The notes: a model not told the origin generated them from the letters alone. A stretch of DNA of 64,000 nt from Nannocystis pusilla (GCF_049060185.1 NZ_JBMEQO010000002.1); one strand, 5' to 3'; numbered from the stretch's first letter, positions 4,295 to 61,335 are shown. Made by a program: numbers and translations.

Positions 4295-4372
4295 CCGAAA
4301 GGACATGTCCGTTCGGCCATGCTCCGTCGCCGGGCGCACGAAAAACGGCCATGTCCTCATGGACATGGCCGT
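4295..4372. repeat. CATG-core 14-bp palindromic repeat array (4 units in 2 pairs) between convergent genes
   Basis: ggacatgtcc gttcggccatgctc ... cggccatgtcctcatggacatggcc; CATG at 4304, 4318, 4350, 4364. Confidence 0.7.
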
Positions 4373-4416
4373 GTGGCAGGTTCGACGAGCGCCTCGCGCG
4401 CCGCGCCTGCTCGACC

Positions 4417-4903
4417 TCATTGCGGGCGCGGCGGCACGGTGCCGGCCCACGTGATCGCCGGCCGCTCGCCGGCGGGCTTGCTCGGCCGCTTCGCCCGCTT
4501 CGGCGGCACCTTCCCGGCCCACGAGATCGCCGGCTGCTTCGCCTTCTTCGGCGCCTCGCCCGCCCACGTGATCGCCGGCTTCTTCGGCACCTCGCCCGCC
4601 CACGTGATCGCCGGCTTCTTCGCCTTCTGCGGCACCTCGCCCGCCCACGTGATCGCCGGCTGCTTCGCCTTCTGCGGCGCCGCACCGGCCGGCTTCGTCG
4701 CAGGGCGCTCGCTGGCGTCGACGCGGCGGGCGGGCTTGCCGCGGCCGTGCAGGCCCGGGTCGCCCGCGGAGGCCCAGCCGTAACCGCGGCTGGCCATCCG
4801 CGGCGCGGGCCCTCCGACCCCCAACCGCCGTGCGACGAGAGCGTGAAGCTGCAACCGGTCACGCTGAAGAGGAGCGCCAACAGGGTCAGGATGAGCTTGT
4901 GCA
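4417..4903 (-). CDS. Lys-rich repeat lipoprotein with four tandem KAKxPAITWAGEVP repeats; frameshift near 4815
   Basis: Signal peptide plus lipobox in one frame (MHKLILTLLALLFSVTGCSF). The repeat frame gives PQKAKQPAITWAGEVPQKAKKPAITWAGEVPKKPAITWAGEAPKKAKQPAISWAGKVP, ending at 4417. The underlying DNA is a 42-45-bp tandem repeat at 4530-4700. Confidence 0.5.
4530..4700. repeat. Coding tandem repeat (about 42-45 bp, 4 copies; cacgtgatcgccggc...) inside the lipoprotein gene
   Basis: Four near-identical copies of cccgcccacgtgatcgccggc(t/c)(t/g)cttcg... are directly visible in the sequence. Confidence 0.8.
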
Positions 4904-5020
4904 TTTTCCTTAAAACCTCGGTGCGCACGGACGCGCGTCGACTCTGCCTATTCAGGGTATCGACATTCGCCGCAGGTCGGCCTCTGCTCACGGCGGGGCG
5001 GCCGCCGGCGCCGGAGCGGC

Positions 5021-5068
5021 GAATCGCGGCGATTCGCGGCGATTCGCGGCGATTCGCGGCGAATTGCA
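5021..5068. repeat. Tandem decamer repeat (GATTCGCGGC, about 4.7 copies) in a divergent promoter region, abutting a CATG-palindrome array
   Basis: gaatcgcggc gattcgcggc gattcgcggc gattcgcggc gaattgca at 5021-5068, seen directly. Confidence 0.85.
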
Positions 5069-5070
5069 TC

Positions 5071-5100
5071 ACATGTCCCAAAGGTCATTGTCATATGGGC
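5071..5100. repeat. CATG-core palindromic repeat (2-3 units) adjacent to the decamer repeat
   Basis: acatgtcccaaaggtcattgtcatatggg; unit spacing 14 bp. Confidence 0.55.
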
Positions 5101-58317: not shown

Positions 58318-58387
58318 CTCGCCGCGCCGACCTGCCGCACGACCGCGGGCGCTTCCGGCTAACGCCCGGCCAACGAACGCCTGTCCT

Positions 58388-58470
58388 TGTGGGCATGCCT
58401 AAAGGCCATGCCCTTCGGACCATGAAAAAGGGACATGCTCGGACGAGCATGTCCCTCCGGACATTTTCGA
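58388..58470. repeat. CATG-core 14-bp repeat array, 6 units with a 13-14-bp period, between convergent genes
   Basis: CATG/CATT at 58394, 58407, 58421, 58434, 58448, 58462. Confidence 0.85.
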
Positions 58471-58480
58471 GACTACCGCC

Positions 58481-60676
58481 TCACTTCGCGCGGACCTGGC
58501 GGGCCGCCTCGCTGATCTTGCGCTGCTCCTCGGCGTCGATCACCCCGTCGCGCAGGGCCTCGTCGACCGCGCTGCGGACGGCGGCCGCGGCCCGCGAGGC
58601 CTCGGCCTTGTGGCGACCCTTCTCGGCCTGCCGCTCGGCCCGCTCGCGCGCCCGCTCGGCCCGCTCGCGCGCCCGCTCGCCCTGTTCACGCGCCCGGTCG
58701 CCCTGCTCGCGCGCCCGGTCCGCCCGCTCGCGCGCCCGATCGGCGTCCTCGCGGGCCCGGTCGGCGTGCTCGCGGGCCCGCTCGACGCCGCGGAGCGACG
58801 CCTTGACCCCGCGCTCCACGTCGGCGGCGATCTTGTCGAAGTCGATGCCCTCCAGCTCGCGCTCGATCTGCTCGTCGAGGCCCTGGAGCTGGGCTTCGAC
58901 CTGGGCCGCGATCGCCTCGGCCTGCGCCACGATCGCCTCCTCGTCGATGTCCGGCACGTGGAACACGTGCGGATGGACGGCCACGTGCGGCACGGCGATC
59001 GGCCGGACCATCACGTCGTGATCGTCGTCGTCGCAGTCGTCGTGGTCGTGCGCGACCACGACCTTGAAGCTCGGTGGGGTCGGCGGCGTCGGCGGGGTCG
59101 GCGGAGTCGGCGGCGTCGGCGGCGTCACGTGCGACACCGGCACGTACACCGCGTGCGTCGCCGGCACCGCGTACAGCCCGCTCTTGGCGCGCAGCTTGGC
59201 CGCCTTGCGGGCGTGTCGCTCGGCGCGGCGCAGCAGTCGCTTCTGCTTGCGGGTCAGCTCCTGCGCATGCTCGACGACGATGACCTCGTGCCCGTGGGCC
59301 GCGTAGTTGTGCGGCGTCCTCACCACGATCGGCGTCTCGGGCACGTGGACGAACGACAGCGTCGGCTGCGGCGCCGGCCCGTTGTCGGGCAGCGTCGGCC
59401 ACTCGGAGGCATCTTGCGTCTCGGCCGCGATCGACAGCCCGGGCGCGCCGAACGTCACCATCGCCAGCAGCGCCGCGCCGAGGGCCACCCGCCAGCGCCG
59501 CGCCCACAGGCCGCGATCGCGCAGGTGCACGTCGAGCAGGCGCTGCACCCGGCGCACCAGCTGCGAGGCGTGCCCCGCCATCGGGCTGGCGAACGCCGAC
59601 ATGTCCCGATGACCAGGCCACGCCGCGACCTCCGTCAGGCAGCGCGCCAGGTGCACCTCCGAACCGGTGTGGCGGACCGCCCAATCGTCGCACAGCTCCT
59701 CCGCCGCCTCCTGCATGCCGCGACGGGCCACGCGATTGAGCGGCTGGAAGAACAGCAGCGACTCGACGAACGCCGCCAGCACCTGCCACGCGGGATCACG
59801 GCGCAGCACGTGGGCCAGCTCGTGGGCCAGCATCGCCTCTTGCTGCCGCGGCGCCAGCTCGCGCACCTGCTCCGGCACCACGATCTCGCGGCCGGTGAGG
59901 GCGATCGGCGAGCTGATGTCCGCCGACTCGCTCAGCGTGACGCTGTGACCGGGCAGCCGCGCGTGGGCCAGCAGCCGCGTCAGCCGCTCGCGCAGCGAGC
60001 CCGAGCCGAGCAGGCGACGACCGCGGAGCCCGCGGCGCATGCGGGAGAACGACATGCCGAGCCGGCCGAGCGAGGCCGCGGCGCCGAACACGAACAGCCC
60101 CGCGAACGCCCACACCGCCGCGCTCACGCCCCCGGCCGGACCCGCGGTAGCGATCTGCATCGGCGCGGCTGCCAGCGGCGGTGCGGTCGTCGGCGCGGGC
60201 ATCGGCGCGGGCGCGACCGCCCAGCCCGGCGCGTCGACGAACAGCGGCGGCGAGGCGAACACCGCCGTGATGTCGTCGTCGCTGACGACCACCACGTGCG
60301 ACTCGCAGCCGACGCACGCGCGGGTGAACGGCACCAGCAGCGTCGCCGGCTCCTCCTCGATCACCGGCGGCGGCGCCGGGGCCGTCGTCGGCGCGCCCAG
60401 GTCCGGGCTGCTCGCCGCCACGGTGACGCGGCCGAACATCGGCTCGACCCCGAGCCCCGTCTGCAGCGTCGCCGTGAACAGCCCGCCGACCAGCGATGTC
60501 TTCCACAGCAAGCTGCGGGTCAGCGCGTCGAGCGGCAGGAAGCGGCTGAACATCCACACGCCGCCGATGAGCACCGTCGAGTGGACGAAGTAGGTGCCGA
60601 GCCAGCTCACTGTCGTGTGAGCGGCCGGCGCCGCGAGACCGGCGAGGCCGGCAGGATCGATCGCAAGATCAAACAT
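58481..60676 (-). CDS. BlaR1/MecR1-type M56 metallopeptidase signal transducer with a long C-terminal Pro-Thr repeat and a charged heptad-repeat coiled-coil domain; no PBP-like sensor domain
   Basis: Intact 731 aa; multi-TM N-terminus; HELAHVLRRDP (HExxH); (TPP)x5; ADRARE-type 7-aa repeats encoded by 21-bp tandem repeats at 58590-58760. Start overlaps the upstream gene's stop (ATGTTTGA). Confidence 0.75.
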   Translation of the reverse strand: MFDLAIDPAGLAGLAAPAAHTTVSWLGTYFVHSTVLIGGVWMFSRFLPLDALTRSLLWKTSLVGGLFTATLQTGLGVEPMFGRVTVAASSPDLGAPTTAPAPPPVIEEEPATLLVPFTRACVGCESHVVVVSDDDITAVFASPPLFVDAPGWAVAPAPMPAPTTAPPLAAAPMQIATAGPAGGVSAAVWAFAGLFVFGAAASLGRLGMSFSRMRRGLRGRRLLGSGSLRERLTRLLAHARLPGHSVTLSESADISSPIALTGREIVVPEQVRELAPRQQEAMLAHELAHVLRRDPAWQVLAAFVESLLFFQPLNRVARRGMQEAAEELCDDWAVRHTGSEVHLARCLTEVAAWPGHRDMSAFASPMAGHASQLVRRVQRLLDVHLRDRGLWARRWRVALGAALLAMVTFGAPGLSIAAETQDASEWPTLPDNGPAPQPTLSFVHVPETPIVVRTPHNYAAHGHEVIVVEHAQELTRKQKRLLRRAERHARKAAKLRAKSGLYAVPATHAVYVPVSHVTPPTPPTPPTPPTPPTPPSFKVVVAHDHDDCDDDDHDVMVRPIAVPHVAVHPHVFHVPDIDEEAIVAQAEAIAAQVEAQLQGLDEQIERELEGIDFDKIAADVERGVKASLRGVERAREHADRAREDADRARERADRAREQGDRAREQGERARERAERARERAERQAEKGRHKAEASRAAAAVRSAVDEALRDGVIDAEEQRKISEAARQVRAK

Positions 60677-61078
60677 CGTCGTGTTCCTCAGCTCCGCCGG
60701 ATCGTTCGGCCAATAGTTGTTGCAGGCGCGCGACGTCGTCCGGTAGGGCGTCGCGGCCTTCGACGAGGTGGCTGACCAGCGCCGCCACGTCCCCGCCGAA
60801 GAAGTAATCGGTGAGCCTGCCCAGCATCGAGCGCCTCACGTCCACCTCGCAGACGAGGGCCCGGTAGATGAACTGCCGGCCCTCCGTGCGGTGCGCGATG
60901 GTCCCCTTCTTCTCCAGCCGCGACAGCATCGTCGACACCGTCGTCGGCGCGAGCCCCGATCTTGCTGGACCAGAGCCGCATGCACCTCGAGCGCCGTCGC
61001 CTCCCCGCGGTCCCACAAGATCCGCAGCAGGCCGAGCTGCAGATCGCTGAGCTGGAGTACCTCACCCATGAACGACAA
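60669..61078 (-). CDS. BlaI/MecI/CopY family transcriptional repressor; frameshift near 60950
   Basis: MSFMGEVLQLSDLQLGLLRILWDRGEATALEVHAAL..., then TVSTMLSRLEKKGTIAHRTEGRQFIYRALV in a second frame; translationally coupled to the downstream M56 gene. Confidence 0.65.
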
Positions 61079-61247
61079 GCGTAGTACTACAGGTGTAGTA
61101 AGCCGTCAAGCGAGATTCTCGGCCTCTGGCGGCCTTCCAGAGCGGGAGCTCGGAAACGCTCCGACCTGCACTTTCGTACATGTCAGCCGCCATATGCGCG
61201 GTCGGCGCAGACCGTCGTCCGCCCTCCTTTAATGGGCTCGACCACCG

Positions 61248-61335
61248 CCGACGTGCTCCATTCGACATGTTCAATCGTACAGGTCCTATTCGACATTGAT
61301 ATAAGGACATTTCCAAAAGAACATGTCCCATCAAG
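61248..61335. repeat. CATG-core 14-bp repeat array, 6 units with exact 14-bp period, AT-richer variant, upstream of blaI
   Basis: CATG/CAGG/CATT/CATC at 61256, 61270, 61284, 61298, 61312, 61326. Confidence 0.8.

Follow-up and report, generated by a model that had tools for sequence, protein, structure and literature searches.

The closest described counterparts of the repeats reported here are the REP and BIME elements of Enterobacteria and Pseudomonas, together with the REPINs, which are imperfect palindromes of 20–40 nt that form stem-loops. Most RAYT-linked REPs are marked by a GTAG/CGTC tag, and in E. coli BIMEs are bound by gyrase and IHF. Untagged stem-loop repeat families have also been listed for M. 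tuberculosis, D. radiodurans, Bordetella, Brucella and cyanobacteria (PMC3733652).

Here we describe arrays of short palindromic repeats in 64,000 nt of Nannocystis pusilla DNA (GCF_049060185.1 NZ_JBMEQO010000002.1; the whole stretch is hereafter the window), and in a wider sample of 404 kb of Nannocystis sequence with 104 arrays, part of which was chosen for holding an array. They are probably a REP/BIME-like extragenic palindromic family of Nannocystis, whose 28-nt hairpin modules mark the 3' ends of transcription units. Our best reading is that the family is new, with a sequence distinct from E. coli REP/BIME and an unusually strict 14-bp register. An earlier note on this DNA had not recognized a described element, and we likewise found no published description of these Nannocystis repeats in the literature searched.

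A degenerate unit in a strict 14-bp register

The earlier note described the repeat as a perfectly palindromic 14-mer. However, a window-wide search found no copy of that 14-mer (TCGGACATGTCCGA), and only two matches at two or fewer mismatches. The recurring element is a degenerate unit, wmGGRCATGYCCnw, whose copies keep very strictly to a 14-bp register. Palindromy holds for its consensus only: in 68% of units the bases on either side of CATG break the symmetry. The CATG itself is nearly invariant and is the sole fixed part of the unit, with variable flanks and with end positions that carry no information in the unit profile.

The strict periodicity that had been reported for the CATG-centred repeat was borne out at the places named, as was the array size of two to six units: 17 CATG-to-CATG gaps in the window are exactly 14 bp, vs one to four for any other gap size up to 60 bp. 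A position weight matrix (PWM) of the unit gave 70 matches in the window, above the 19.9 ± 4.4 expected from 200 first-order Markov simulations, and 17 pairs of matches exactly 14 bp apart, vs none in each of the 200 simulations. Across the 404 kb sample, 191 of 212 unit-to-unit gaps were exactly 14 bp and 15 were 28 bp. Units within one array are no more similar than random units and thus bear no sign of recent duplication.

Chance, or a compositional artefact of a high-GC genome, might be argued from the absence of the exact 14-mer and from a few two-unit matches at start codons (8600, 37978), which could be coincidences of ATG context. This explanation is refuted by the 17 in-register pairs with none in 200 simulations, by the 191 gaps of 14 bp and by the covariation described below. 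The family also recurs in at least nine Nannocystis genomes and makes no arrays in about 75 kb of GC-rich control loci (L124–L128), and we regard the probability of an artefact as negligible.

With CATG as the only invariant part, the arrays could also be clusters of sites recognized by a CATG-specific restriction system or DNA methyltransferase, or else signals for DNA uptake of the Neisseria DUS or Haemophilus USS type, for which there is precedent in the inverted DUS and USS pairs that occur downstream of genes, in terminators. We find either very improbable. The overall CATG count in the window is unremarkable (198 observed vs 167 expected), and neither idea accounts for the 14-bp register or the covariation of hairpin arms. 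Uptake signals, moreover, are exact, strongly over-represented 9–12-mers common in genes, whereas here four bases are fixed and units are 15-fold depleted in genes; on this depletion and the missing exact 14-mer, a DNA uptake sequence was rejected. CRISPR loci, which consist of repeats of 25–50 nt with unique spacers of similar length, were rejected as well, given 14-bp units, 4-nt spacers and at most six units per locus.

Repeat loci in the window

We counted as clear those loci that matched a covariance model of the 28-nt hairpin at E<0.01. The covariance model finds the PWM loci again; in all, nine loci are clear (4285–4372, 6691–6774, 8600–8627, 11664–11747, 18004–18105, 37978–38005, 50625–50652, 58389–58470 and 61261–61344) and three weak or decayed (9135–9162, 63450–63477 and 63938–63965), or about one locus per 6–7 kb; the previous figure of 13 or more was too high.

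The five arrays that had been assigned to convergent gene pairs are all present and convergent (4299–4372, 6691–6774, 11664–11747, 18004–18105 and 58389–58470). The first, between genes 3140–4204(+) and 4417–4797(−), contains two two-unit modules. One is at 4299..4326 (AAGGACATGTCCGT TCGGCCATGCTCCG; PWM; covariance model 26.5 bits, E=2e-5), and the other, at 4345..4372, has a perfect 12-bp stem and a 4-nt loop (ACGGCCATGTCC-TCAT-GGACATGGCCGT) and is the best covariance-model match (35.1 bits; fold z=−3.3). Read on the minus strand, this second module precedes TTTTT, and it lies 44 nt past the stop of 4417–4797(−), and in a terminator scan it (4345–4372(−)) was the sole copy resembling a canonical terminator. 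At 6691..6774, six units in exact 14-bp register lie 10 nt past the stop of 6186–6680(+) and 46 nt from that of 6821–7636(−), with an RNA fold of −41.4 kcal/mol (z=−3.9). The six-unit array at 11664..11747, one unit of which is degenerate (CATT), lies 3 nt past the stop of a GNAT gene, 11217–11660(+), and adjoins the stop of 11752–13065(−) (PWM; z=−5.2); its units 1–4 can form a nested long hairpin. Next come two two-unit modules, both detected by PWM and covariance model, at 18004..18031, 4 nt past the stop of the MOSC gene 16992–17999(+), and at 18078..18105, 22 nt past the stop of the S1/P1 nuclease gene 18128–19204(−). The last, at 58389..58470, is a six-unit array with two 13-bp steps (z=−5.6), 71 nt past the stop of 57748–58317(+) and 10 nt past that of the BlaR1-like gene 58481–60676(−), and includes a perfect 12-bp hairpin at 58429–58456 between AAAAA and TTTT.

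Five further arrays had been placed in divergent promoter regions, but only one in the window is so located: a six-unit, AT-rich and partly decayed array at 61261..61344, detected by the covariance model about 180 bp upstream of a blaI-like gene. The two-unit copy at 8600..8627 (covariance model 24.4 bits; PWM) covers the predicted start codon of 7851–8621(−), the ATG of which is supplied by one of its CATG cores; this atypically placed copy may be a weaker or chance one. A weak two-unit copy at 37978..38005 lies 112 nt past the stop of 37434–37865(+) (PWM; covariance model 23.2 bits), and a weak hairpin at 50625..50652 (CCATGCC-CGCTTC-GGCATGG), with a CATG pair 14 bp apart, was found by the covariance model only (19.3 bits, E=0.003). 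Among the weak or decayed loci, 9135..9162 has one strong unit (TTGGACATGTCCTT; PWM 18.0 bits for the single unit) with degenerate neighbours (covariance model E=0.1), 80 nt past the stop codon of 9242–11056(−), a Ser/Thr kinase gene, and 63938..63965, directly past a stop codon, is a remnant with CCTG and CATC cores 14 bp apart (covariance model E=0.097).

The 28-nt hairpin module

Covariation between copies identifies a 28-nt hairpin as the working module. It consists of two adjacent, inverted 14-bp units whose stem of 10–12 bp is closed by a loop of 4 nt, with each arm centred on CATG. Pairing in the 12-bp inter-unit hairpin, measured over 44 independent two-unit copies, was 77.7% vs 73.0 ± 1.0 after shuffling (0/500), and 44 cells were altered on both sides of the stem vs 23.3 in shuffles (0/500). 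The same test found no covariation for a fold within a single unit, and the bases flanking CATG anti-covary inside a unit and are complementary between neighbouring units. The self-complementary head-to-tail units of the earlier note thus give way to inverted pairs; the near-palindromy of each arm gives consecutive modules the look of a 14-bp head-to-tail repeat.

Two asymmetric unit types, a and b, alternate beyond expectation (a-to-b 18 vs 12.9; b-to-a 22 vs 11.6), and in five-unit arrays units 1–2 and 4–5 pair, but 2–3 and 3–4 do not. All six window arrays that were folded had z-scores between −3.3 and −5.6. With its 12-bp stem and covariation, the 28-nt module is an imperfect stem-loop palindrome within the 20–40 nt range of REP/BIME, and the clusters of two to six units, spaced at 14 bp with a/b alternation, have the regular alternating arrangement of that class. 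Loops within hairpins and linkers between hairpins share a length of 4 nt. Hairpin function alone does not account for this match, nor does it explain the invariant CATG.

We found no RNA-specific strand signal, as sense and antisense strands fold equally well, no bias between G-U and A-C mismatches on the transcribed strand (29 vs 23) and no array polarity relative to the gene. An absence of strand bias would suit a double-stranded binding lattice, in which a dimeric protein would bind the 10-bp palindrome GGRCATGYCC, oligomerize at 14-bp steps and, at gene ends, serve to form a roadblock, manage supercoils or organize the nucleoid. Such a lattice would also suit a near-invariant CATG with variable flanks, a core palindrome of the size expected for a dimeric helix-turn-helix protein, and a register that persists from one hairpin module to the next and includes middle units that do not pair, which hairpin function does not call for. 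The 42 bp covered by three units correspond to about four helical turns, and positive supercoils accumulate at convergent gene ends. On the other hand, compensatory changes from arm to arm are unexpected if half-sites are recognized independently, half-sites anti-covary within the unit, and we know of no candidate protein. We treat the lattice as a possible but rather unlikely alternative. The lattice and hairpin readings are compatible, and E. coli BIMEs do both.

Arrays adjoin gene ends

Using gene calls that reproduce the annotated genes at two loci, we found that 47 of the 84 classifiable arrays in the 404 kb sample lie between convergent genes, 33 between co-directional genes and four between divergent genes, where the intergenic regions available numbered 67, 179 and 61, respectively. 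Co-directional arrays adjoin the upstream stop, at a median distance of 27 nt, vs 196 nt to the next start, and the median stop distance of convergent arrays is 10 nt. Within 15 nt of a stop there were 29 of the 47 convergent arrays (16.7 ± 2.4 by random placement) and 14 of the 33 co-directional ones (4.7 ± 1.7). The operator array entertained in the earlier note, which implies a promoter location, was rejected on these positions: only four of 84 arrays are divergent, and co-directional ones lie near the upstream stop, not the downstream start. Its suggestion of a REP/BIME-like, extragenic hairpin at gene ends fared better, being supported by the stop abutment, the strong folds and the arm-to-arm covariation.

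Nor are units as frequent in coding sequence as elsewhere, an outcome that would have told against the family: in the 404 kb sample their density is 3.34 per kb outside genes and about 15 times lower, at 0.22 per kb, within them. The 104 arrays in 404 kb are in keeping with an extragenic family of more than 100 copies per genome, as for REP/BIME; extrapolation from this partly array-selected sample would give on the order of 1,500–2,000 arrays per 11–13 Mb genome.

A stem-loop at these short median distances past the stop (10 nt convergent, 27 nt co-directional) is as expected of an intrinsic terminator. However, only 3–6% of array ends have at least four T in a 6-nt window; since a U-tract is lacking and only one copy passes the terminator scan, we reject the arrays as canonical intrinsic terminators.

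Distribution and inheritance among relatives

The family is present in at least nine Nannocystis genomes, and Nannocystis contributes 38 of the 120 matches listed in a pattern scan of a genome collection. It is dense in N. exedens, pusilla, punicea, radixulma, bainbridge and RBIL2; SCPEA4 has one array in 21 kb, L124 has none in 20 kb, and more distant relatives (L125–L128) yielded none in a sample of about 55 kb. Taken together, these equally GC-rich control loci L124–L128 (about 75 kb) gave no PWM arrays and no covariance-model match at E<0.01. As far as the sampled sequence goes, the repeat family is specific to the genus Nannocystis.

Conservation in related genomes, proposed as a check in the earlier note, extends to individual sites, as four orthologous sites keep the array position between species while the units diverge or decay. 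Alignments show the positions of 18004..18031 and 18078..18105 to be conserved in L123 and N. punicea; 11664..11747 has a counterpart in N. punicea (L001 17799–17868), and synteny between N. pusilla and N. punicea breaks exactly at this array. The match of 61261..61344 in N. exedens (L129 9345–9414) is intact by alignment, and the site of the remnant at 63938..63965 holds an intact five-unit array in that species.

Lineage-specific expansion, with arrays decayed in one lineage and intact in its sister, would also be expected of selfish or neutral mobile DNA (of MITE or REPIN type) spread by a transposase, which would have no host function and would owe its position after stop codons to selection removing other insertions; purifying selection on insertions would also leave promoters and genes depleted, as observed. 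We nonetheless doubt this explanation. Compared with uniform placement inside the intergenic region concerned, arrays lie too close to stop codons; their positions are inherited vertically while units turn over, and the sequence diversity among copies is higher than a recent burst would leave. In addition, no transposase was seen in the sampled DNA, and inspection of the flanks of 33 oriented arrays showed no terminal inverted repeats, target duplications or shared ends. A search for RAYT/Y1 transposases by tblastn (approximate E. coli YafM query) and by HUH...Y motif found none in 404–454 kb, which, at about 3% of one genome, says little for a single-copy gene. The suggestion in the earlier note of a substrate for a REP-associated transposase is not supported, the arrays having no GTAG/CGTC tag of the kind found in most RAYT-linked REPs.

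A model for array function

Under the preferred reading, that of a REP/BIME-like family at transcription-unit ends, modules and single extra units are joined in strict register into arrays of two to six units, which can fold on either strand as side-by-side or nested hairpins. Such arrays would be transcribed as mRNA 3' ends, where their stem-loops may halt or delay RNA polymerase, hold off 3'-to-5' exonucleases, or both, as is the case for E. coli REPs, and between convergent genes they would act in both directions. We infer a putative role as terminators or mRNA stabilizers.

The shared CATG core and fixed register suggest a common trans-acting factor, which might be either a binding protein or an enzyme that mobilizes the units through hairpins in single-stranded DNA. 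We tentatively raise the idea, for which we would claim only a modest chance, that the arrays form a recognition lattice for a Nannocystis-specific factor reading the CATG stem or duplex at 14-bp steps. This factor might be a non-RAYT enzyme that both builds units and moves them in register, or a protein that marks and insulates transcription-unit ends; if so, the arrays would represent a new kind of end-of-gene system, beyond another REP family.

Comparison with known systems

The arrays resemble Rho-independent terminators in having a stable stem-loop tens of nt from the stop, symmetric and usable on both strands between convergent genes, but differ in that 94–97% of copies have no U-tract and in having a family-wide conserved core and a fixed register. 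With inverted DUS and USS pairs they share a short conserved core on both arms of hairpins downstream of genes; unlike these, the core is degenerate (CATG alone is fixed) and strongly excluded from coding sequence, and arrays have up to six units.

Similarities to REP/BIME elements go further, as both are extragenic, abundant and arranged in regularly spaced clusters of alternating orientation, both favour sites past gene ends or between convergent genes, with few copies in divergent promoters, and both are lineage-specific and vertically inherited. In contrast, the Nannocystis repeats do not carry the GTAG/CGTC terminal tag (in 104 arrays with 6-nt flanks, GTAG occurs once, CTAC four times, CGTC nine times and GACG 10 times), their invariant motif being CATG in mid-arm. 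Unlike RAYT-linked REPs, no RAYT gene was found for them in the sampled DNA. Each arm is nearly palindromic, copies are much more diverse in sequence, and a rigid 14-bp register, with 4-nt loops and 4-nt linkers, makes the arrays read as tandem repeats. Such in-register arrays are not described in the texts searched for the untagged families (PMC3733652), which are likewise REP-like palindromes without conserved terminal motifs or a known mobilizing enzyme, and from which the Nannocystis repeats differ in belonging to another sequence family and another phylum, the Myxococcota.

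A degenerate CATG-core unit in the window

The earlier note described the repeat as an exact palindromic 14-mer, TCGGACATGTCCGA, but this sequence is absent from the window, where only two matches appear even with two mismatches allowed. An exact or near-exact 14-mer recovers almost nothing there as a search model, so a degenerate model is needed. Across 313 units from several genomes, the consensus is w-m-G-G-R-C-A-T-G-Y-C-C-n-w, in which the CATG core is conserved at 98–99% and the flanking G/C positions at 72–77%, with four spacer positions nearly free. A position weight matrix (PWM) of this unit gives 70 matches in the window, compared with 19.9 ± 4.4 expected from 200 first-order Markov simulations, and pairs of matches spaced at exactly 14 bp occur 17 times in the window and never in the 200 simulations. 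Counting the cores directly, 17 CATG-to-CATG gaps in the window are 14 bp long, while any other gap of up to 60 bp is found one to four times.

The PWM together with a covariance model resolves nine clear and three weak or decayed loci in the window, fewer than the 13 or more previously counted. All five arrays assigned to convergent gene pairs are present, whereas the five assigned to divergent promoters reduce to a single divergent-region array (61261–61344). No match to an Rfam family and no tRNA was found in the window.

Adjacent units pair as a hairpin module

Individual units had been taken to be self-complementary. Watson-Crick symmetry around CATG within a unit is in fact below expectation (104 vs. 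134.6), and the dominant asymmetric unit types, GACATGC and GCATGTC, are mirror images of each other. It is adjacent units that show mutual complementarity above expectation, with the two types alternating more often than by chance. When unit 1 is paired with unit 2 as a 12-bp stem with a 4-nt loop, 77.7% of cells are paired in 44 independent two-unit copies, compared with 73.0 ± 1.0% in shuffles (0/500), and 44 cells are changed on both sides, compared with 23.3 ± 4.3 (0/500). Each module therefore forms a 28-nt stem-loop whose arms carry CATG in the middle, and strings of modules resemble a 14-bp tandem repeat because each arm is itself nearly palindromic. Clear examples are GAGGACATGCTC-CACA-GAGCATGTCCTC and GAGGACATGTCG-TAAT-CGACATGTCCTC. 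A GGA-CATG-TCC mini-hairpin inside a single unit was also considered and rejected, its covariation being no better than that of shuffles.

Among five-unit arrays, units 1–2 and 4–5 are complementary, while 2–3 and 3–4 fall below the complementarity of random pairs; in some four-unit arrays, outer units and inner units pair up into a single long nested hairpin (e.g. 11664–11719). Real arrays fold slightly better than assemblies of random family units (mean z −0.36, P = 0.004), and the hairpin potential raised in the earlier note is borne out by all six window arrays tested, which fold far better than shuffles (z −3.3 to −5.6). The spacers are diverse and without strand bias, and no preference for UUCG or GNRA tetraloops was found in them.

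A rigid 14-bp register

We found 104 arrays in 404 kb of Nannocystis sequence. Successive units are separated by 212 gaps, of which 191 measure exactly 14 bp; another 15 measure 28 bp and span a decayed unit, and almost none fall in between. Loops and inter-hairpin linkers are therefore both fixed at 4 nt. Distinct arrays of one intergenic region are mutually out of register (4299/4345, 18004/18078). At a distance of one, two or three steps, units are only as similar as random family members, so the arrays carry no trace of recent slippage, and we reject such an origin for them.

This rigid register is the chief feature left over, as hairpin function alone does not account for it. A trans-acting factor could explain both the register and the CATG core, and the main rival explanation, a protein lattice on double-stranded DNA, would account for these two features better than a hairpin does; it leaves the covariation of the arms unexplained, however, and we regard it as unlikely. 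The two explanations are compatible with each other. If the hairpin reading holds, self-palindromic arms, a central core and a 14-bp register kept even between modules pose the question of which enzyme or binding protein enforces the register.

Array positions relative to stop codons

Gene calls were made with a codon-usage gene caller, whose stops and strands match the annotation at two annotated loci. In context classes that rest on these predicted genes, 47 of the 104 arrays fall in convergent regions (67 regions), 33 in co-directional regions (179) and four in divergent regions (61), the remainder being inside predicted genes (12) or at locus edges (eight). In the window itself, arrays occupy six of 14 convergent, one of 15 divergent and none of 24 co-directional regions. 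Unit density is 15 times higher outside genes than within them, in keeping with the extragenic character first ascribed to the family.

The arrays also sit close behind stop codons. Twenty-nine of the 47 convergent arrays lie no more than 15 nt from a stop, compared with 16.7 ± 2.4 if arrays were placed uniformly within their region, as do 14 of the 33 co-directional arrays (4.7 ± 1.7 under uniform placement), which lie a median of 27 nt from the upstream stop and 196 nt from the next start. Placement of this kind is that of an element at the end of transcription units and not of an operator, and the operator role suggested earlier fits poorly with arrays at stops and with four divergent against 47 convergent and 33 co-directional arrays.

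Extragenic repeats at such positions have a familiar precedent in the REPs of E. coli, whose transcribed stem-loops stop RNA polymerase or make it pause and shield the 3′ ends of mRNAs. Few arrays resemble canonical terminators: a U-tract (at least four T in 6 nt) is found at just 3–6% of array ends, and the sole copy passing a terminator scan is 4345–4372 on the minus strand. Fold energies of sense and antisense strands are equal, the transcribed strand has G-U mismatches as often as A-C mismatches, and arrays have no polarity relative to the gene. RNA is therefore not favoured over DNA by any of these features.

Genes flanking the arrays

Histidine kinases are numerous in the window (70–75% G+C), which also encodes a Ser/Thr kinase and a BlaR1-like protease. 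Pfam supports the array-flanking genes for a GNAT protein (11217–11660, + strand), a MOSC protein (16992–17999, +), an S1/P1 nuclease (18128–19204, −) and the BlaR1-like protein. The nuclease is 91% identical to a metagenomic protein, 86% to the Nannocystis punicea enzyme and 77% to the one in Nannocystis sp. SCPEA4, and an exact protein look-up returned no record for it; the BlaR1-like protein is 89% identical to its N. exedens counterpart. These identities place the window in a Nannocystis closely related to N. exedens.

Several other features were observed. A minus-strand blaI/blaR1-type operon lies at 60669–61125, where the BlaI-like repressor is split into two overlapping frames (60836–61078 and 60669–61016), pointing to a frameshift or a sequencing error. 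Immediately upstream there is a perfect palindrome, TACTACA-GG-TGTAGTA (61085–61100), also conserved in N. exedens; it is probably the BlaI operator and has no relation to the CATG arrays. Several predicted genes contain in-frame tandem repeats, with periods between 15 and 81 bp, at 58631–58784, 41248–41349, 50195–50282, 56381–56558 and 4491–4678; one, with a 21-bp unit, gives the BlaR1-like protein an Arg/Ala/Glu-rich tail, and another is Thr/Ser-rich with a 21/42-bp period. A hybrid histidine kinase/response regulator cluster with PAS domains spans 42763–49936 (42763–44205, −; 44713–46725, −; 48599–49936, +).

Distribution and turnover

A three-unit pattern, scanned against one genome per species, matched at least 120 stretches. 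Among the 120 matches listed, the family is restricted to Nannocystis, which contributes 38 (exedens, pusilla, punicea, radixulma, bainbridge, RBIL2 and two metagenome-assembled genomes). About 30 of those listed are from filamentous cyanobacteria and are unrelated (GGGGCAT)n heptamer tandem repeats, found in Nostoc, Microcoleus, Oscillatoria and relatives (loci L019, L026, L038, L039, L044 and others). The pattern also caught an unrelated 14-bp direct repeat, GRCATGTTGATRAC, in Candidatus Spongiihabitans (L076), and the remaining non-Nannocystis matches among those listed are single ones. Four contigs of more distant relatives (nuclease identity 59–62%, similar G+C) hold no arrays in about 55 kb. 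Among 2.9 million viral contigs there were 33 matching stretches, so no phage link is visible.

Within the genus, a single array was found in 21 kb of SCPEA4, and none in 20 kb of a related metagenomic contig (L124). Array density in this lineage (one array in 41 kb) appears much lower than in N. exedens, N. punicea and N. pusilla (about one per 6 kb), a contrast that offers a possible route to the responsible factor.

In four comparisons of orthologous sites, arrays are inherited vertically at a fixed position and their units turn over; conservation in relatives extends to array positions and not to the units, which differ or decay. First, both stops of the nuclease/MOSC convergent region are accompanied by arrays in the window, in a further locus (L123) and in N. 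punicea, the last with more units. Second, an array lies 3′ of a DUF3089-like gene both in the window (11664–11747) and in N. punicea (L001, 17799–17868), and nucleotide synteny between the two genomes breaks off exactly at this shared array (window 11752, L001 17766); arrays may mark or promote rearrangement breakpoints. Third, N. exedens has an intact array upstream of blaI where that of the window is decayed, with two of five aligned cores still CATG and the register unchanged. Finally, a five-unit post-stop array of N. exedens corresponds to a two-unit remnant at 63938–63965 in the window.

Larger repeats accompany some arrays in N. punicea. A ~50-bp tandem repeat in three copies (L001, ~11075–11230), absent from the window, shares an intergenic region with the CATG arrays 3′ of the nuclease gene. 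At a second locus (L130, 12613–12938), 3′ of a BlaR1-like gene, the segment GCTCCAAGGGGCATGTCCTTTCGAGC reappears at intervals of about 128 bp, so CATG units can travel inside a larger tandem duplication.

Lineage-specific expansion and decay are what purely selfish DNA would produce, but this explanation is a poorer match to the tight abutment of stop codons, and we consider it rather improbable.

Comparison with REP/BIME elements

We favour as probable, and best supported, the reading of the arrays as a Nannocystis-specific, REP/BIME-like family of extragenic hairpins marking the 3′ ends of transcription units. The REPs of E. coli, for which polymerase pausing or stopping and protection of mRNA 3′ ends have been summarized (PMC2817692, PMC3733652), suggest by analogy that the transcribed stem-loops might pause or stop RNA polymerase, and that they might shield mRNA 3′ ends. 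If this reading is true, it gives the Myxococcota a family of REP/BIME-like elements, and we found none described for this phylum; the arrays would flag transcription-unit ends in genomes of 11–13 Mb with poor annotation and a wealth of biosynthetic gene clusters, could serve as strain-typing markers, and would mark at least one interspecies synteny breakpoint.

The REPs of Enterobacteria and Pseudomonas are linked to RAYT transposases. No such gene was detected by local tblastn (with an E. coli YafM sequence as query) or by an HUH...Y motif scan in the 454 kb sampled, a few percent of one genome. A full-text literature search and the REP survey papers checked yielded no published description of the CATG-array family. 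The likeness to REP/BIME elements drawn in the earlier note holds for the extragenic post-stop hairpins and their end-of-unit position, and does not extend to the GTAG/CGTC tags of most RAYT-linked REPs, which the arrays lack. The general kind of element is already known, but its architecture here is distinct.
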